From an uncultured Pseudomonadales bacterium (GTDB lineage: Bacteria > Patescibacteriota > Microgenomatia > UBA1400 > MFAQ01): a DNA stretch of 64,000 nucleotides. A program made the position numbers and the translations under genes. The DNA lies in assembly GCA_964429015.1 (NCBI GenBank), contig CAYSAM010000003.1:6378-70377 (forward strand), in the 5' to 3' direction. This document shows positions 19,345 through 56,282 of this stretch, piece by piece. How positions within the stretch are numbered: position 1 is the stretch's first letter; each line of letters begins with the position of its first letter. Below the pieces are notes generated by a model. That model was given only the letters and a program-made list of their open reading frames with translations, did no database searches and was not told where the DNA came from.

Positions 19345-22300
19345 GTGACCAGTTTTTTTACCTATCTTCACAAGCTTAACAAAGTAAAAGTTGGAATAAT
19401 TTTTTTATCTCTTTGTTTTTTGGTGTCAGTCGCCGTTTTTATTTTGCCTCAACTTCGTCAAACTGCGCGCATCAAACTTGGATCAGTAGACGGGCTAACT
19501 ATAACCGCTGATAAGCAGGACTCTCTCGGTATCTTCACCAATACCCAATTTACCGTCAAAACAGATACTGATCTGAGCTCTTCCGACATCAAAAAGAACC
19601 TCACCATTTTTCCTGCTACAGAATTCGATATTCAGCCGATTTCTGCACGTCAATTCACCTTAACTCCAAAACAACACCTCCTAGATAACAGTATCTACAG
19701 AATCGAAGTCAAAACCAATCAAAAAACTTTTTCGTGGGCATTTCAAACCAAAAATGATTTTCGTGTAGTCAATTCTCTTCCAGCCGACAAAACAGCCTAC
19801 GTACCCACAAACACAGGTATAGAACTAATTTTTAGCCACGACAACTGGGAAGATCCAAAAAGTTTCTTTTCTATTCATCCCAAGACGGAAGTAAGTTTCG
19901 AGCGCCACGGCCGGACCGCCTCATTTTTGCCTAAGTCCTTAAATCCCGGAACTCTTTATACCGTTACTCTCAAAAAAGGTCTAAAGCTAAACGGTACTGT
20001 CGATATCCTAAAAGACGATTTCACTTTTCAATTCGAAACAAAACCTTCCACTCCAATACAATCAAAAGTAAGCTTTTCCAAACTAACTTACGAATTTTCT
20101 GACACAGTAACACCAGCTTTCGATGTCTATGTTCCCAGTGAATCACTTTCGGCTATTTCTGCTGATATTTACAAATATCCCGGAGACTCAAGTTTTCTAA
20201 ATCATCTAAATGAAAAAATCTCTACCCCCTCGTGGGCAACTTACTCGGTTAGTAGCGATGTTTTACCAACTAACAATCTTACCAAAGTGGTTTCCCTAAA
20301 TCTAAATATTCAAAAGCAAAAATATAGTAACTTTTTCTCACTTCCCCAAACCCTACCTCTTGGACAATACCTTATCGAGGTATCTGCTGGTGGTCAAAAA
20401 TCCCAAGCACTATTTCAGGTTACCAATGTTTCCGCTTACTTTACCCAAAGTGGCACCAAAACTCTAGTTTGGGTCAACAGTTTAGCAAACGCTCCACTTT
20501 CTGGTGCTACGGTAACTTACAACAATAACAATCAGACCACCGATCAAAACGGCATCTCTTACTTCGAAACTGAACCCTCAGATATACAACTAGGTTTTCA
20601 AAATAAAACAACTATAGTTGCCGTGAAGCAGTCACTTGGAGCTCTTTATTTTCCTTTAAAGAGCGATTATTCTATTTTTTACCAAAAGCAATCACGCCAA
20701 TCAGATAAGTACTGGAGTTATATTTATCTAGACAGGCCCACCTATCTTCCAACAGATACTGTAAAGCTTTGGGGTTTACTCAAAAACAGAGATCTGCCAG
20801 ATAAAAAAACAGAATTTACCTTAGAGGTTACTCGCTCCGATTATCATTCTTGGGACTATCAGCCCATTGCTGTCTATTCCAAAAAAGTTACAACAACAGA
20901 TTTAGGAACCTATCTCGAAGAAATCAACCTCAATCAGTTTTCACCAGGCTGGTATACACTCAGTTTTAAGGTTGGTAATGATATCGTTATTAATTCAGGT
21001 TTTAGTGTTGAAACCTATGTCAAACCAGCCTACAAAATTTCTGTTCAACCTTCGGTCAAAGCTGCTTTTTCTGGAGATCAAATTAATCTTTTAGGTCAGG
21101 CCCAATTTTTTGAGGGGACACCTGTTGTTGGTTTACCGCTAAAAAGCTACAATTCTGACAGTAGTCTAGCTTCACTTACTCCAATCACTGACAACCAGGG
21201 TAAATTTTCAGTTTCTGTTCCTGTAAATAATGGTTCTGCAAATTATTCTCCTAATAATGTGAGTTTTACTTTCTCTCCAAAAAATCCTGAAGAGGGGCAA
21301 ATTTCTGGAAGCGCCAGCCTTGCTGTCTTTTCCTCTTCTCTCTATTTTCCTTATCCACGCATAGACAATAAAAACAATCAATCATCAGTTACTATCAACC
21401 TTCGTCAAGTAGATCTTCAAAAATACTCTCCCACAGCCGACCTCGCCGAGGTTTTTAATCCAGCACCAAATCAAAATGTTCACGCTGTTATTTATCAAAT
21501 CGATTGGCTCAAAAATCAGGTTGGTACGTACTACGATTTTATAAACAAGGTAACCTCTCCAACTTACGAATACTCACAATCTCAAAAGCAAATAGGGGAG
21601 TTTGACTTGGTTACAAATAGTTCTGGTCAAGCCACTTATAGTGTCAATCTCCCCGAAAATACAACATATAAAATTTCATTTTCTTCCAAGGATTCACTGG
21701 GCAGGACGGTTACTCAAGAAGCCATTTTGTACGGTAACAATTATGGTAATTCAGACGACAATTTTCTTTATCTAAAAACCGATAAAGAACAAGAGAAACC
21801 AAATACGTATAATATCGGCGAGCAAGTTAACCTTCATATTGAACAGGGTGGTAAAACTATAGCCGAAAACGAGTCAGACAAGTTTCTTTTTATTGTTTCT
21901 CAGCGCGGAATCAGATCATATTATCTCTCAGATAATGGCCTATTCAGCTTTAAATTTCCCGAAACCTTTATTCCAAACTTTTTTATCCAAGCAGTAAGAT
22001 TCAACGGTCAAACCTACCAAGCTACCGAAAATCTAAGCCTTTACTTCAACCAGGACTCCAAAAAATTAAACATTAAACTTTCCTCAGATAAACCTCTGTA
22101 CGAACCTGCTGATACTGCCAAAATTAACGTTACCACTTCAGACAATAGTGGCAATCCTATCCCTGCTGAAGTAGTCCTCAACGTGGTCGACGAGTCATAT
22201 TATGCACTCTTCACAGATTATCTCAATCCACTTTCAGAGATATACAAATCTGTCCAAACAGATATCATTACTACTTACGCCACACATCAATATCCAAGCA

Positions 22301-24528
22301 ACAACTCCGGAGCCGAAGGTGGTGGTTGTTTTCTTCCTGGAACCCAAATTCTTATGGCCGATGGAAAATCAAAAGGAATAGAGGAAATAAAAGTAGGTGA
22401 TAATATTAAAACTCGTCAAAGTCTCACTGACAAAAAACTAGTTAGTGCTAAGGTCAAAGAAGTCTTCACTCATCAAGTCAACGGCTACCTGCTAATAAAC
22501 AATCATCTTCGTGTCACCAAGGAGCACAACCTATATGTCAATGGTCGTTGGTTGACGGCAGGTGAGGTTAGGATTGGAGATAGTTATTTGTCAGTCGATG
22601 GAACTTACCAAACAATCAAGTCTATAGAGCCTCAGTCTGGTTTGTACAATGTTTACAACTTATCTATCGACAATCTTCACACCTACTTTGCTGAGGGCTT
22701 TTATGTTCACAACGAAAAAGGCGGTTCCCTTTTCAAAGACACAGCCTTTTTCGGCAACCTAACTACCAATAATCAAGGTCAAGGGTCTGTTGATATAAAA
22801 TTACCCGACAATCTCACTTCTTGGCGCGTGTCTTCAGTGGGACTCAGTTCCAATCTACAAGCAGGCAGTAAAACATTTCCACTGATTGTCAGGTTACCGT
22901 TTTTCCTCACCGCTACTCTTAATACTGACTACTTAGTTTCAGATAAACCTGTTGTTGTTGTACGCGCCTTTGGAGACAGTCTAGTTTCTGGTGATCAGGT
23001 AAATCTAAAAGTCGAGTCTTCTACCTTAAGTATCTCAAAATCAGTTTCTGGTCAAGCTTTCGAGCCCATAAAAATTGACATCAGTCCTCTAAAAGAAGGT
23101 CAACACAAACTAATTTTTACCGCCAGCTCACCAAAAGGTGGTTACAAGTTAGAAAGAACCATCAATGTTCTATCTACTCATCTTTCAAGGAGGTTTACAA
23201 AGTCTATCCCTCTAGCCGAAAATATTTCTTCATCCTCTTTTTCTGCTCAAAATCAAAAACTCGTAATTGCAGATCAAGGGTTAGGGAAGTATTATTCTCA
23301 ACTAACGTCTTTAACTTCCACTTGGGGTGATCGTCTAGATCAAAAAAACGCTCGATCCTTATCTCAGGAGTTGCTAAATCAATATTTCCAGGATCAAAAA
23401 CCCGTGGAGAAAATAGATTTCAATCTATACCAAACAAATACCGGAGGAATATCCCTCTTTCCTTACTCTGGTGCCGACATCGAAAACACATCCTTCATAG
23501 TAGCTTTAAGCAAAAATAAAATTGACAACTCCGCTGTTAAAAGCTACCTGTACTCAGCTCTTACCAAAGCAAAAGATCCAAATACCGCCAGTAAAGCACT
23601 ATTTGGTATTGCCAGTTTGGGTGAGCCGGTTCTTATCCAGATCAACAACATCATCGAAGATTCAAAAATAGATTTGGAGACAAAACTTTATCTTGGTTTG
23701 TCACTAGCAGAAATAGGTGACAAGGAAAAATCTTTATCACTCTACAAGGAGCTACTTGCCACAACCAAATTAGAAGAACAAAACATTTCCATCATTGCAC
23801 TTTTTGCTGACCTGTCAGCCATACTTGGTCAGTCAGAGGCAGACGATTTTCTTAACCGTGTCTTTACCACCTCATCTAAGGAGTACTCATTAGTAAGTCA
23901 AAAACTATTTGCACTTCAGAGTCTGTTACCAAGAGCCAGTACAGAACCAGTCGCTTTTACTTATAGTCTTGCTGGCACAGAAAAAAAGATCACTCTTGCC
24001 AAAGGGCAAAACTTAAACCTCTATGTTACGGAAAAGGACTTAGCCACTCTAAAATTCTCAAATATCTCTGGTCAAGCCATCATCACTTCTGTTATTTCTG
24101 TTCCTGTAGAGCCTGCCAAAATGGCAGCCAATTCCAGCCTAGTTCTTACCAGAACCTTTTATGTTGCGGGTAAAGAATCAACTTCAATAGGTGAATCAGA
24201 CTTAGTTAAAGTCGGTCTTACTTTCCAGATAAACGAAAATCTTCAAGATGGTTGTTATCAAGTTCAGGATGTTTTACCTTCCGGTCTAAAACCTGTTTCT
24301 GCCTTGTTATACCCCGGCCAAGACACCGATTTTTATCACTACCCCTACCAAATCGATGGCCAAAAAGTTAGTTTTTGTGTAACTAAAAACAGCACTAACA
24401 AAAATATTTACTACTATGCAAGAGTCGTAAACCAAGGCGTTTTCAAAGCAGAAAATGCCTTAATTCAGTCCTTAGCTAGCCCCTCCATTTTTACTCTCTC
24501 GCCTTCTTCTGAAGTAAATATAAAATGA
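19345..24528 (+). CDS. large alpha-2-macroglobulin-family surface protein (1727 aa) with embedded Hint / bacterial intein-like domain
   Basis: N-terminal TM/signal; Big-like repeats; A2M-domain signature ...LPDNLTSWRVSSVGL...RLPFF... with VVDESYYAL upstream. Residues 995-1123 run from CFLPGTQILMADG to FYVHN, which is Hint-like. No CxEQ thioester. Confidence 0.8.
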   Translation: MTSFFTYLHKLNKVKVGIIFLSLCFLVSVAVFILPQLRQTARIKLGSVDGLTITADKQDSLGIFTNTQFTVKTDTDLSSSDIKKNLTIFPATEFDIQPISARQFTLTPKQHLLDNSIYRIEVKTNQKTFSWAFQTKNDFRVVNSLPADKTAYVPTNTGIELIFSHDNWEDPKSFFSIHPKTEVSFERHGRTASFLPKSLNPGTLYTVTLKKGLKLNGTVDILKDDFTFQFETKPSTPIQSKVSFSKLTYEFSDTVTPAFDVYVPSESLSAISADIYKYPGDSSFLNHLNEKISTPSWATYSVSSDVLPTNNLTKVVSLNLNIQKQKYSNFFSLPQTLPLGQYLIEVSAGGQKSQALFQVTNVSAYFTQSGTKTLVWVNSLANAPLSGATVTYNNNNQTTDQNGISYFETEPSDIQLGFQNKTTIVAVKQSLGALYFPLKSDYSIFYQKQSRQSDKYWSYIYLDRPTYLPTDTVKLWGLLKNRDLPDKKTEFTLEVTRSDYHSWDYQPIAVYSKKVTTTDLGTYLEEINLNQFSPGWYTLSFKVGNDIVINSGFSVETYVKPAYKISVQPSVKAAFSGDQINLLGQAQFFEGTPVVGLPLKSYNSDSSLASLTPITDNQGKFSVSVPVNNGSANYSPNNVSFTFSPKNPEEGQISGSASLAVFSSSLYFPYPRIDNKNNQSSVTINLRQVDLQKYSPTADLAEVFNPAPNQNVHAVIYQIDWLKNQVGTYYDFINKVTSPTYEYSQSQKQIGEFDLVTNSSGQATYSVNLPENTTYKISFSSKDSLGRTVTQEAILYGNNYGNSDDNFLYLKTDKEQEKPNTYNIGEQVNLHIEQGGKTIAENESDKFLFIVSQRGIRSYYLSDNGLFSFKFPETFIPNFFIQAVRFNGQTYQATENLSLYFNQDSKKLNIKLSSDKPLYEPADTAKINVTTSDNSGNPIPAEVVLNVVDESYYALFTDYLNPLSEIYKSVQTDIITTYATHQYPSNNSGAEGGGCFLPGTQILMADGKSKGIEEIKVGDNIKTRQSLTDKKLVSAKVKEVFTHQVNGYLLINNHLRVTKEHNLYVNGRWLTAGEVRIGDSYLSVDGTYQTIKSIEPQSGLYNVYNLSIDNLHTYFAEGFYVHNEKGGSLFKDTAFFGNLTTNNQGQGSVDIKLPDNLTSWRVSSVGLSSNLQAGSKTFPLIVRLPFFLTATLNTDYLVSDKPVVVVRAFGDSLVSGDQVNLKVESSTLSISKSVSGQAFEPIKIDISPLKEGQHKLIFTASSPKGGYKLERTINVLSTHLSRRFTKSIPLAENISSSSFSAQNQKLVIADQGLGKYYSQLTSLTSTWGDRLDQKNARSLSQELLNQYFQDQKPVEKIDFNLYQTNTGGISLFPYSGADIENTSFIVALSKNKIDNSAVKSYLYSALTKAKDPNTASKALFGIASLGEPVLIQINNIIEDSKIDLETKLYLGLSLAEIGDKEKSLSLYKELLATTKLEEQNISIIALFADLSAILGQSEADDFLNRVFTTSSKEYSLVSQKLFALQSLLPRASTEPVAFTYSLAGTEKKITLAKGQNLNLYVTEKDLATLKFSNISGQAIITSVISVPVEPAKMAANSSLVLTRTFYVAGKESTSIGESDLVKVGLTFQINENLQDGCYQVQDVLPSGLKPVSALLYPGQDTDFYHYPYQIDGQKVSFCVTKNSTNKNIYYYARVVNQGVFKAENALIQSLASPSIFTLSPSSEVNIK
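22327..22713 (+). mobile_element. Hint (BIL/mini-intein-like) domain inserted in the A2M-like protein
   Basis: Begins with Cys and ends with His-Asn (HN); 129 aa. The +1 residue is Glu, not Cys/Ser/Thr, which argues for BIL-type over a canonical intein. Confidence 0.65.
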
Positions 24529-53149: not shown

Positions 53150-53683
53150 ATGGAAACAGAAAAATGCCCCAAATGTGGCGCACCCTTAGGAGATGTTCAA
53201 GAAACAGCAACTGGACGCAAGTTGCAACGTTGTTCGGCAGGTTCTTGGAATAAAGAAACCAAAAAAAACGAAGGTTGTGACTATGTTAAGTGGTTACAAG
53301 TAGAACCCCAAACCTTAGACGAAAAATGCCCCAAATGTGGCGCACCACTAGTGCTTCAAGTAACTCGTTTTGGTAAAAAAATGAAAAAATGTAGTGCTGG
53401 CGGATGGGACAAAGAAGCCAAAAAGGCTACTGGTTGTGATTTTGTGGAGTGGGTAAATGGCACCACCGAAAAGTTAGACGAAAAATGCCCTCAATGCGGC
53501 GAGGAACTCGTTCTTTATACTACCGCTAACGGCAAAAGAATGAAAAAGTGTTCCACTTCTGGTTGGGATAGAGAAGCCAAACGTGCCACCGGTTGTCCTT
53601 ATGTTGAGTGGCTCAAGGCGGAATATAAAGCAGCTCCAGCTAACGGCGAAGAATTTTTGCCCCCCGAAGAAGACATCTTCTAA
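53150..53683 (+). CDS. protein made of three tandem topoisomerase-type C4 zinc-ribbon modules
   Basis: Three repeats of CP(K/Q)CG..L-x20-CS(A/T)(G/S)GW-x13-GC(D/P)(Y/F)VEW; the DNA repeats about every 160 bp. Confidence 0.6.
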   Translation: METEKCPKCGAPLGDVQETATGRKLQRCSAGSWNKETKKNEGCDYVKWLQVEPQTLDEKCPKCGAPLVLQVTRFGKKMKKCSAGGWDKEAKKATGCDFVEWVNGTTEKLDEKCPQCGEELVLYTTANGKRMKKCSTSGWDREAKRATGCPYVEWLKAEYKAAPANGEEFLPPEEDIF

Positions 53684-53705: not shown

Positions 53706-53731
53706 GTCATGCCGGACTTGATCCGGCATCC
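53706..53731. repeat. family-1 GTCAT hairpin element
   Basis: GTC-ATGCCGGA-CTTGA-TCCGGCAT-CC. Confidence 0.75.
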
Positions 53732-53756
53732 AGTTACAAATAAAAACGTTTTATCT

Positions 53757-54251
53757 ATGAAAAAAAAGAAGCATAGTCAAATTGATAAAATTTCTACCTG
53801 GCTCACCGAGTCTATAGGTACAAATACCTCTCTAGTCGTGCACACAATCCTATTTGTAGGGATTTTTTCACTGTCTTTATTTGGATTAACTATCGACAAA
53901 ATACTGCTCATTCTTACTACGGCCGTTTCCTTGGAGGCCATCTATCTAGCCATCTTTATCCAAATGACGGTTAACAAAACCACCGAGAGCTTGGCTAGTG
54001 TAGAAGAAAACATCGACGAAATCCAAGAGGACGTAGACGACATTCAGGAAGACGTCGAAGACATCCAAGAGGACGTAGACGACATTCAGGAGGATGTAGA
54101 CCATCTAGAAACAAACATCAAAGATATTTCTGAGGACTACATCGACGACGAGGTAGAGGAGAGTGATACCGTCAAAATCCTAAGCAATATTGAGTCACAA
54201 CTTAATTTACTCAAAGAGGAAATTGCCGAACTAAAAAAGAAAGCAAGTTAG
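53757..54251 (+). CDS. DUF1003-family membrane protein with acidic heptad tandem repeat
   Basis: 2 TM followed by ...IFIQMTVNKTTE... and a coiled coil. 21-nt tandem repeats at 54021-54110 encode (IQEDVDD)x4. Confidence 0.55.
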   Translation: MKKKKHSQIDKISTWLTESIGTNTSLVVHTILFVGIFSLSLFGLTIDKILLILTTAVSLEAIYLAIFIQMTVNKTTESLASVEENIDEIQEDVDDIQEDVEDIQEDVDDIQEDVDHLETNIKDISEDYIDDEVEESDTVKILSNIESQLNLLKEEIAELKKKAS

Positions 54252-54349: not shown

Positions 54350-55423
54350 TTGAAAAAAAATATTGCTTTTGTTGTTTTAACTTTATTTTGTGTAATTATT
54401 TTGAGTTCTTGCGGTTTCAAAGAAAAAACCGCTCTAAAAATTATTTCACCCACCGAAGGTGTGCGCCTCACAGGGGAAACACCGGCTACAAATGTCACAG
54501 CACTCATAGAAACAAACAGGACAGACATTTCTACTATTCCTGTGAAGGTTTTTATAAATGATACTGTCCAAGGTGACCAAATTTTAAACATAAACACCGA
54601 AACAACATTTCAAATTCCTTTGGTAAATACGGGTGTTTATCACTTACGTCTAGAGGTTGATCAATCAGATGGTAAAAAAATTACTGCCGAAACAAAGTTT
54701 GTTTGGATACCAGTTAGAGGTTTCGACGTTGCCGCACTGTCAATTGCTCAGATGGTAAACAGAGAGGATCCTACTACAGGATACTTTATCATTGGTGCTT
54801 TTGTACTTTTAGTTATGATCATCTTGGCACTAATAAAAAGTAAGCAAGGTGGTATGCCCACAGTAATTATTAGTATTTCGTCTTTTATAACACTTATTAT
54901 TCTCTTGACGGCTGGAGTTGATCCTGTTCTTGCTTACAGATACTTTAATACTGTAATTGGTACTGTGATGGGACTAGGGTTAGTTTCAATTTTTGCATAT
55001 GTAATTTCCAATTTTGCAAACAAAAACTATGCCTATCGCGGATCTAATACCGTTGTTGTAAGTGCCAAAGCTTGGTGGCCAACAGGCGAGCCTCTTGCCA
55101 ATATTGAGATGACTGCAAATGAGGGTAGTTATTTTGGAAATGCAAACAGCATCCCTCAAACTCAAATTACCGCCATTGCTAGTACTTTATTTGTGTTACC
55201 AAAAATTATTGAACAAGCCGCCAGACTTATGGAGGAGTGTCCAAACCCAGCAGCAAGATCTCAGGTTATAGATGCACTCTACACAGGTCAAGATAATAGT
55301 GACATGCACTACTTTACAGACCAAATGGCAGCTGGATATATGCTCCCAGACGGGACTCGCCCAAACAACTCTATCGTCACAATCCAAGGATCTAAATCTT
55401 CAAAAAAAACAAATTGGAGGTAA
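54350..55423 (+). CDS. hypothetical membrane lipoprotein (TTG start, lipobox LSSC)
   Basis: SD AAGGAG 7 nt before the TTG; later TM helices. Confidence 0.55.
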   Translation: MKKNIAFVVLTLFCVIILSSCGFKEKTALKIISPTEGVRLTGETPATNVTALIETNRTDISTIPVKVFINDTVQGDQILNINTETTFQIPLVNTGVYHLRLEVDQSDGKKITAETKFVWIPVRGFDVAALSIAQMVNREDPTTGYFIIGAFVLLVMIILALIKSKQGGMPTVIISISSFITLIILLTAGVDPVLAYRYFNTVIGTVMGLGLVSIFAYVISNFANKNYAYRGSNTVVVSAKAWWPTGEPLANIEMTANEGSYFGNANSIPQTQITAIASTLFVLPKIIEQAARLMEECPNPAARSQVIDALYTGQDNSDMHYFTDQMAAGYMLPDGTRPNNSIVTIQGSKSSKKTNWR

Positions 55424-55424
55424 T

Positions 55425-56282
55425 ATGCCGAATATAGTGACAGATACAAAAGATCTTTATAGACAGCTTTTTCCTTATCAGTTAGCAACTGATTTCATCG
55501 GCGACGCTCACAGGGCACTTAGTTTTGTCACCGCTCCAACACACCAAGGCGAAGAACTTTATCAAGTGTTAAAAACTCTTAAAAAGCGCCTCGAATATGT
55601 TATTGAATTTGCATACAGTCCCAGACGAAGACCATATGAAGATGCAATAGAAAATGCTCAAGAAGAAATTGAAATTCTTGCTCGTGCAATCCATCACTAC
55701 GATTTAGCCTTTAAGGGTTATCCAAATGCTCTAAATCTAGACTTTTTAAGTTGGCAAAAGAACAGTTTAGGTTTTCCAGCATTTATGGTTATGGATATGT
55801 CAGTTGGGCCAAAGTTCAGCATTGTTGCTAAAGTCGATAAAACAAAACGCCCACCAACCACCACGCTCACTATCACTCCCAAACTCCCTGTGGAGGTGAC
55901 TGCTCCATACAACGCATTTAAAAACCTATTTGTCTCAAAGGCGGAATCAAATAGCATATCAACTTGCACCATTGCAGCCAAATTTGGTGGCAGTCCACCA
56001 AAATCTACAGATAAAAAAATCGATACGGCTGATAACTCAAAATTATTCAAACAGTTTATTATCATTGCCGAAGCACCAAACTGGGAGTTTGATGTTATTG
56101 TAGAGGTCAAAAAAGACCCTATTGTTGCTGCTCTATCTCCCGTATTTCATCCGGTAAAAAAAGATGACTATGGAAACCCGGTATCTATTGGGAATCACAT
56201 CACTTTTATTGATATTTTTAACCTCACCCACATCGAAGAACGAGCTCTTCAGTCATCACTGATTAGTCCGGGTAGCAAATAG
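55425..56282 (+). CDS. hypothetical protein (285 aa)
   Basis: SD GGAGG 6 nt before the ATG at 55425. The long 55272 start overlaps the upstream gene. Confidence 0.55.
   Translation: MPNIVTDTKDLYRQLFPYQLATDFIGDAHRALSFVTAPTHQGEELYQVLKTLKKRLEYVIEFAYSPRRRPYEDAIENAQEEIEILARAIHHYDLAFKGYPNALNLDFLSWQKNSLGFPAFMVMDMSVGPKFSIVAKVDKTKRPPTTTLTITPKLPVEVTAPYNAFKNLFVSKAESNSISTCTIAAKFGGSPPKSTDKKIDTADNSKLFKQFIIIAEAPNWEFDVIVEVKKDPIVAALSPVFHPVKKDDYGNPVSIGNHITFIDIFNLTHIEERALQSSLISPGSK

Follow-up and report, generated by a model that had tools for sequence, protein, structure and literature searches.

A stand-alone protein of three divergent topoisomerase-type zinc ribbons in Microgenomates, a putative binder of single-stranded nucleic acid

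The window analysed here is a stretch of 64,000 nucleotides whose gene set includes gltX, a CCA-adding enzyme, RelA/SpoT, a SecD-type export protein, RNase Y and NAD synthase. It also carries a small gene encoding three tandem cysteine-bearing repeats and an acidic tail, for which the first-pass annotation gave the coordinates, the length of 177 residues and the quoted peptides correctly. The gene and its parts are the following.

53150..53683, + strand: gene of the stand-alone three-ribbon protein, ATG to TAA, 177 aa plus stop (from the ORF list and the sequence)
53150..53311, + strand: repeat 1, aa 1-54; CPKC, x18, C28, x14, C43 followed by DYVKW
53159-53184 and 53321-53346, + strand: copies 1 and 2 of the 26-nt word GAAAAATGCCCCAAATGTGGCGCACC, encoding EKCPKCGAP in repeats 1 and 2
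53234..53275, + strand: Cys3-Cys4 spacer of repeat 1, aa 29-42, SAGSWNKETKKNEG; 14 residues, subtype-specific
53312..53470, + strand: repeat 2, aa 55-107; CPKC, x17, C81, x14, C96 followed by DFVEW
53393-53434 (repeat 2) and 53552-53593 (repeat 3), + strand: equivalent Cys3-Cys4 spacers
53471..53629, + strand: repeat 3, aa 108-160; CPQC, x17, C134, x14, C149 followed by PYVEW
53630..53680, + strand: acidic C-terminal tail, aa 161-177, low-confidence in the structural model
53645-53665, + strand: GEEFLPP tail motif, aa 166-172, conserved in the family

The 12 Cys of the 177-residue protein (6, 9, 28 and 43; 60, 63, 81 and 96; 113, 116, 134 and 149) form three in-register units of the pattern C-x2-C-x17/18-C-x14-C, and this repetition is far above chance expectation. 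The units measure 53-54 residues, so that of the three tandem repeats of about 55 residues first proposed the number stands and the length does not. At the DNA level the period is 159-162 nt and the copies are 60-72% identical to each other, and the array escapes Tandem Repeats Finder, its copies having drifted too far apart. The gene has a GC content of 45% versus 39% for the window, and a promoter and terminator scan at the gene returned nothing exceeding shuffled expectation. A protein identical to the window's 177-aa product is called on an NCBI metagenome contig. As had been described, the product is free-standing: it consists of ribbons alone and is not fused to a topoisomerase. Scans of the 177-aa protein found no Pfam domain besides PF01396 and nothing above cut-off in NCBIfam, and a PHROGs search gave weak matches only, of unknown function.

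The repeats are, with high confidence, ribbons of the type found at the C-terminus of topoisomerase I (TopA), as the first-pass annotation had proposed. The whole protein matches PF01396 (Zn_ribbon_Top1) in three stretches at 41.7 bits (gathering cut-off 32, E 9.7e-11), and the absence of a profile match that was to count against the proposal is thus not what the zf-C4_Topoisom check returned. This match holds for the protein and not for its single repeats, which score 17.3, 27.4 and 22.4 bits (repeats 1-3), all under the cut-off of 32, in alignments spanning only positions 1-20 or 2-11 of the 39 in the profile. The Pfam profile recognises just the first knuckle and hairpin of each repeat. Against PDB sequences neither the single protein nor a repeat-unit profile found a significant match; the unit profile reached TopA only at an E of about 0.5, over positions 3-23, and a match to zebrafish TRPM2 was dismissed as a chance match. 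The AlphaFold2 (AF2) model of the whole protein is all beta (pLDDT 70.7), and its one real PDB match in Foldseek is 4RUL_A, E. coli TopA with ssDNA (probability 0.95, 159 columns); E. coli TopA is also the top structural match of one single repeat. Domains D5-D7 of the E. coli enzyme, EcTOP1 (PDB 4RUL, 9GDA), are the best structural match both to the three-unit array and to a single unit, and the predicted structure shows the same kind of small antiparallel beta-sheet. In the topoisomerase repeat Topo_C_ZnRpt, the Zn ligands are a C-x2-C pair followed by Cys3 and Cys4 "further apart" (PMC9369019), and all three window repeats have C-x2-C, then Cys3 and Cys4. A profile comparison with E. coli YrdD (b3283) and the existence of TopA-fused twins, both described below, point the same way.

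Within this fold the repeats constitute a divergent subtype. They share with Topo_C_ZnRpt the CPxCG ... L first knuckle, and repeat 2 keeps the RFG motif. Unlike the Topo_C_ZnRpt of TopA, they are unattached to a topoisomerase, the second half of each unit is unseen by the Pfam profile, and they have an extra hairpin and lack the canonical stacking aromatics. The hairpin corresponds to the Cys3-Cys4 spacer, which is 14 residues long in 120/120 family sequences, as compared with 4-10 residues in EcTOP1 and YrdD; EcTOP1 D5 likewise has a long spacer, of 10 residues. The Cys spacing is identical throughout the 120 sequences, the spacer coincides with gaps of 9-10 residues in the alignment to YrdD, and in AF2 models it forms the extra strands of a beta-hairpin. 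An invariant Trp stands inside it at Cys3+5 (120 sequences), and a strand of the form [DE][YF][VI]xW follows Cys4. In canonical ribbons two aromatic positions that stack on ssDNA flank Cys3, in the pattern F-x-x-C-x-x-Y (PMC9369019, PMC4678816). In the window protein, repeats 1-3 have Leu, Met and Met at Cys3-3 (G[KR][KR][LM]) and Gly, Gly and Ser at Cys3+3, so that neither position is aromatic. Because the stacking aromatics are replaced, these repeats may bind in another way than canonical ribbons do, and perhaps to another ligand (RNA, structured DNA or protein). The best-conserved stretch of the protein, TRFGKKMKKCS in repeat 2, is invariant across 32 aligned sequences.

How does this protein relate to other free-standing or ssDNA-binding fingers? 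The nearest parallel is YrdD, to which the family aligns in hhalign with a probability of 96.3% (E 1.8e-9) and in BLASTP at 28% identity (E 4e-7). Each is a free-standing protein of roughly 180 aa that contains nothing but tandem CPxCG-type ribbons and lacks a catalytic domain. YrdD contains four ribbons of the canonical form, with Cys3-Cys4 spacers of 4-5 residues and the F-x-x-C-x-x-Y pair, whereas the window protein has three ribbons, 14-residue spacers, Leu/Met and Gly/Ser at the aromatic positions, Trp at +5 and the GEEFLPP tail. The lineages differ as well (Enterobacteriaceae for YrdD, Microgenomates for the window protein), and while the YrdD gene sits in a smf-smg-yrdD-tsaC cluster, the window gene is without such synteny; dprA lies near the gene in just 1/85 related loci. 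The window family is an analogous, independently derived stand-alone family and not an orthologue of YrdD.

Two other candidates were considered and set aside. Membership among the GRF fingers was suggested by the motif likeness GKKMKKC ... GCxFVEW, and the Trp at Cys3+5 and the [DE][YF][VI]xW strand after Cys4 do recall eukaryotic GRF fingers. PF06839 (zf-GRF), however, does not match the window protein at E up to 10, the GRF-like PF23549 matches over the first knuckle only (13.9 bits, E 0.049), and the structural similarity is weak. The Phe of GRxF in the GRF fingers (APE2 5U6Z, NEIL3 7JL5, ZCCHC4 6UCA, TOP3A) is Met/Leu in the window protein, and the beta1 strand before the first knuckle, absent in GRF fingers, appears to be present in its predicted structure. 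The relation is one of resemblance only, not membership. An SSB reading, suggested by the acidic ...EEDIF end, was rejected as a family-wide rule given the all-ribbon fold, where an SSB would have an OB fold and an acidic tip ending in Pro-Phe, and the finding that just 29/121 members (24%) end in Phe; what the family conserves is the internal GEE[FY]LPP. A canonical Microgenomates SSB exists (locus L080, with the tail ...EEGGEMPF), and thus the window protein neither replaces SSB nor strictly mimics the SSB tip.

The family is large and its members are alike. A search of 5.8 billion clustered proteins gave 2,111 matches, the best 120 of which are 170-198 aa long and 75-89% identical to the window protein; the closest homologue (P0001) is 89% identical, as is the locus of one related genome (L009). 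The same three-unit architecture occurs in more than 2,000 database proteins, and a scan in which each species was represented by a single genome detected relatives in at least 226 of these genomes. The lineages named among the best 120 are Candidatus Curtiss-, Woese-, Collier-, Levy-, Gottesman-, Shapiro- and Daviesbacteria, all Microgenomates of the candidate phyla radiation (CPR). One record among the 120 is labelled Actinobacteria. The informative titles among the matches listed name Microgenomates/Patescibacteria lineages, bar one Spirochaetia and two Saccharibacteria labels; the latter three labels sit on contigs with near-identical copies. Among named genomes the family is thus confined to Microgenomates. 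An exhaustive HMMER search of 1.84 billion representatives at 50% identity yielded 284 matches with a single full-length representative (P0121), and therefore the whole family is one tight 50% cluster. Of nine genes syntenic between the window and a Collierbacteria genome, that of the ribbon protein is the most conserved, at 77% identity against 48-74% for the others. On these comparisons the family is strongly constrained.

The three units did not arise recently, as far as these comparisons can tell. The first-pass annotation had found a 26-nt word twice in the gene, at the positions given above, and had taken the similarity of the repeats as a sign of recent internal duplication; the word is there, and the duplication is older. 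A family-wide signature marks each of the repeat positions, that of repeat 1 being ETxTGRKLQRCSxGSWNKETKKNEGCDYVKW, and repeats at the same position are on average 78% identical between genomes (minimum 64%), as against 38-66% between the repeats of one protein. Since same-position identity exceeds identity within a protein, the triplication predates the divergence of the sampled Microgenomates lineages and is ancient. The 26-nt identity itself needs nothing more than conservation of the peptide EKCPKCGAP in both repeats together with shared codon bias, perhaps with some help from gene conversion. The chance that all eight shared residues share codons is about 0.003 under window codon usage, a value uncorrected for multiple comparisons. 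There is a modest excess of shared codons within genes: codons of identical residues match in 50-57% of cases within a gene versus 40-45% across genomes (84 genes), and exact words of at least 20 nt between repeats 1 and 2 occur in 11/84 genes versus 5/300 controls. These figures hint weakly at occasional gene conversion over short tracts between repeats, and genome-specific codon bias could explain the same data. Five genomes had looked striking for gene conversion before the 84-gene comparison. The exact repeat in units 1 and 2, the codon excess and the long exact words are also what could be cited in favor of a lineage-specific internal triplication of recent date that may still be evolving and has no settled function. 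We hold that explanation to be extremely unlikely, indeed refuted by the signatures and by the identities between genomes, considering that the architecture and signatures are common to Collier-, Woese-, Gottesman-, Shapiro-, Davies- and Levybacteria, that same-position repeats are so much closer between genomes than the repeats of one protein are to each other, and that the codon excess is small and explicable by genome-specific codon bias.

The same ribbon subtype also occurs attached to topoisomerase itself. The exhaustive profile search found four TopA-sized proteins (P0151, P0153, P0191 and P0202) that match at their C-termini, and Toprim and Topoisom_bac were confirmed by Pfam in 4/4 scanned; P0391, a close relative of P0202, also ends in the same subtype. 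Repeat 2 aligns to the C-terminal ribbon of window subtype in P0151, CPKCNGDVFLQLTKNGKKMKKCSNGSWNPKTKKVEGCDFLEW, at 52% identity over 67 aa (E 5e-21), and two consecutive window repeats align to P0202 (E 9e-18). Fused and free ribbons share the pattern C-x2-C ... GKKMKKC-x14-GC[DT][FH][LIV]EW. They differ in arrangement: the fused versions are one or two units placed after Toprim/Topoisom_bac and are without a GEEFLPP tail, whereas the window protein has three units standing alone with that tail. At E 0.001 or better PF01396 makes no call on the subtype ribbons of P0153, P0191 and P0202, and in P0151 it calls just the canonical last ribbon. The hosts of these enzymes can be read from several signs. 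P0151 is NCBI MGL4951134.1, annotated as a topoisomerase of a Mycoplasma sp. MAG, and a Ureaplasma-like MAG is among the relatives of P0191. P0202 and P0153 carry Trp at positions where Gly is universal, and the P0391 gene, on a contig of 22% GC, has 38 in-frame TGA codons, mostly where other TopAs carry Gly. Gracilibacteria and Absconditabacteria (CPR) read UGA as Gly, which is genetic code 25. P0153, P0202 and P0391 are code-25 CPR proteins, and P0151 and P0191 are Mollicutes-like. It follows from the lineages of the fused proteins that the subtype is TopA-fused in other reduced-genome lineages (code-25 CPR and Mollicutes-like) and, as far as the sequences sampled indicate, free in Microgenomates.

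This distribution invites the main rival explanation, in which the TopA of Microgenomates lost its own ribbons and the stand-alone protein supplies them in trans, restoring ssDNA capture and processive relaxation while its GEEFLPP tail attaches it to the TopA core or to RNA polymerase. The identical subtype is, after all, TopA-fused in the Mollicutes-like P0151 and P0191 and in the code-25 CPR proteins P0153, P0202 and P0391. The tail motif, GEE[FY/H]LP, is present in 114/121 stand-alone members and absent from the TopA-fused and phage versions of the ribbons, as would be expected of a docking motif required only once detachment had taken place, and the very high conservation of the protein would fit a component of an essential machine. 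The genomic neighbourhood speaks against it: topA is absent from the 64-kb window and from about 6 kb around the gene in 85/85 related loci, and recently split genes are usually adjacent. E. coli, moreover, carries both a ribbon-bearing TopA and the stand-alone YrdD, so that a stand-alone paralogue need not mean a truncated TopA. No Microgenomates TopA with this subtype is found among the best 150 of the 284 matches, most of which lack lineage assignment. Further searches found no Microgenomates TopA: some 0.95 Mb of related loci were queried by tblastn with TopA of E. coli and of the CPR/Mollicutes type, P0191 and P0202 served as queries in protein searches, and linkage to dprA was examined (L047). 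Taking both sides together, we consider supply in trans unlikely.

The remainder of the neighbourhood is not conserved across the family. In the window and in the Collierbacteria genome the ribbon gene comes after gltX, a 291-aa ORF and a 106-aa ORF, and in the window the gaps in this run are 4-5 nt; this synteny is confined to a subset of 15 loci that includes the Collierbacteria contigs. Other neighbours are found in a Daviesbacteria genome, in a Woesebacteria-named genome (L006) and in a JGI metagenome contig (L007). A conserved operon partner was sought by clustering ORFs over 85 loci and rejected, no neighbour family being shared by more than 15 of them. A Zip transporter lies two genes away from the ribbon gene in one Daviesbacteria genome, where a superoxide dismutase is also close by.

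We lean toward reading the product as a stand-alone three-ribbon protein that binds single-stranded nucleic acid in a zinc-dependent manner, with ssDNA as its most likely ligand. TopA ribbons are reported to bind ssDNA (PMC4678816), and so is YrdD, in a Zn-dependent manner, according to the account given there of Cheng et al. 2014 (PMC4678816). Our literature search found no biochemistry for this ribbon family, and we infer zinc binding, nucleic-acid binding and the type of ligand by analogy; that the function is the binding of ssDNA or ssRNA is, on balance, probable. The protein would be a cytoplasmic array of three four-Cys zinc ribbons, homologous to the C-terminal repeats of TopA and to YrdD, in which each unit of about 53 aa most likely holds one Zn(II) via CPxC, Cys3 and Cys4. 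Each unit would expose a Lys-rich beta3 strand (G-K/R-K/R-M/L-x-K/R-C), the invariant Trp of the inserted hairpin and the [YF]-[VI]-x-W strand that follows Cys4. Strung together like beads, the three units could then jointly grip a stretch of single-stranded nucleic acid through Lys, Trp, Tyr and Phe, in a manner modelled on EcTOP1 D5-D9 and YrdD, both ssDNA binders. The tail has a net charge of -5 over aa 158-177 (20 residues), ends EEDIF in the window copy, and has a pLDDT below 50 at residues 159-170 in the AF2 model. This disordered acidic GEE[FY]LPP segment probably either serves to dock a partner protein or bends back onto the basic ribbons, and in the second case it would be autoinhibitory.

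Binding of a different kind is conceivable. The Lys-rich ribbons might contact RNA or RNA polymerase, making the protein an RNA-binding or transcription/translation factor, an accessory of the expression machinery. The neighbourhoods, however, are not conserved; no ribosomal or transcription-factor ribbon family scores above cut-off, and every homologue of known function that can be detected is a DNA-topoisomerase ribbon. We give this alternative only a small chance. A role in metal handling, whereby the 12 Cys mainly buffer, store or sense zinc or iron, has in its favor that YrdD is reported to bind iron and zinc, to go by the title of Cheng et al. 2014 as cited in PMC4678816, and that a Zip transporter and a superoxide dismutase lie near the gene in the Daviesbacteria genome. 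That context is limited to a single lineage, however, and conservation as high as that of the Cys is seen in TRFGKKMKKCS, the W residues and the tail, none of which pure storage needs; the homologous TopA domains, furthermore, use zinc as structural sites on a DNA-binding module (PMC4678816). Metal handling is accordingly very improbable as the main function, and single-stranded nucleic-acid binding stays the preferred reading.

The basic idea is not new. YrdD is known, and NCBI and JGI already give the family a generic name, which at JGI is "ssDNA-binding Zn-finger/Zn-ribbon topoisomerase 1". In the literature searched, YrdD is described and TopA C-terminal domains are surveyed, and nothing turned up on the CPR family or on the insertion subtype. 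What is new here is, first, that the repeats form a ribbon subtype of their own, marked by a hairpin insertion of 14 residues and by changed DNA-contact residues. The Pfam model sees half of this subtype, and PF01396 stays silent (E 0.001) in the three scanned TopAs that carry only this subtype. Second, code-25 CPR and Mollicutes-like lineages carry the subtype fused to TopA, whereas Microgenomates appear to have it free. Third, this free version ranks among the most conserved small proteins of its neighbourhood and bears a conserved tail motif. It is a long shot, though one worth stating, that TopA is a naturally split two-gene enzyme in Microgenomates, or that its ribbons were freed for a new essential role on ssDNA or RNA. 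If the protein were indeed a trans-acting TopA module, it would provide a natural system for studying what the C-terminal domain contributes to the work of type IA topoisomerases; otherwise it would simply be a lineage-specific ssDNA-binding accessory protein.

First, the repeats within the zinc-ribbon gene resemble one another slightly more closely at the codon level than do cross-genome controls. Across 84 related genes, the fraction of identical residues encoded by the same codon is 0.50-0.57 between paralogous repeats within a gene versus 0.40-0.45 in the controls, and exact words of at least 20 nt join repeats 1 and 2 in 13% of genes versus 1.7% of controls (in the window, the segments compared are 53159-53189 and 53321-53351). 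This excess could reflect occasional short-tract gene conversion, or codon bias alone. Copies of this Microgenomates-specific protein, 70-89% identical, also occur in numerous MAG records whose titles read "uncultured Pseudomonadales bacterium" or "uncultured Gammaproteobacteria bacterium" (L009, L012, L013, L016, L017, L020 and others among the matches listed in a one-genome-per-species scan); these labels look like placeholders or errors.

Second, ribbons of the same insertion-type subtype are encoded on viral contigs, exactly one per protein.

Phage-encoded ribbon proteins, by viral contig
L090, 4752-5306
L091, 4310-4684
L092, 4788-5279
L093, 4758-5135

Members of this family, to which the database proteins P0161 and P0164 also belong, are 124-184 aa long and have a conserved N-terminal domain (ASVTYxLxTPxGYxxLFTxR); at two of the four loci (L090 and L092) the C-terminal part also carries KWPELW..G(L/M)TKx(E/Q)A. 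Neither PHROG nor Pfam gave a function for the family.

Third, the ribbon-bearing TopA gene on contig L094 (6001-8181) contains 38 in-frame TGA codons. Because these mostly align with Gly of other TopAs and the contig has a GC content of 22%, the sequence indicates use of genetic code 25. The corresponding database protein, P0391, derives from a UGA=Trp translation, as do P0202 and P0153, two further TopAs with such ribbons.

Several other features of the window also deserve comment.

Window features, with strand where assigned
19345-24528, +, alpha-2-macroglobulin-like protein of 1727 aa (MG2, A2M_BRD and A2M domains)
53709-54251, +, 180-aa ORF downstream of the zinc-ribbon gene
53710-53728, 7-bp inverted repeat, TGCCGGA-cttga-TCCGGCA
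54350-55423, +, long ORF
55272-56282, +, long ORF

Between its bait region and A2M domain, the alpha-2-macroglobulin-like protein matches PT-HINT / Hom_end_hint (residues ~995-1123), a possible insertion of HINT or intein-like type. In the 180-aa ORF, tandem acidic DIQEDV repeats come after a hydrophobic segment; since its listed ATG (53709) overlaps the inverted repeat, which begins 27 nt past the zinc-ribbon gene's stop, translation may instead start from the ATG at 53759. Neither of the two long ORFs has a Pfam match. They lie in different frames, with an overlap of about 150 nt; one start is probably mis-set, or a frameshift is present.

Finally, a Microgenomates genome encodes a canonical SSB of 170 aa (L080, 9277-9789), adjoining an rpsF-like ORF, whose acidic tail (...SDEEGGEMPF) can serve as the SSB-tip reference for Microgenomates.
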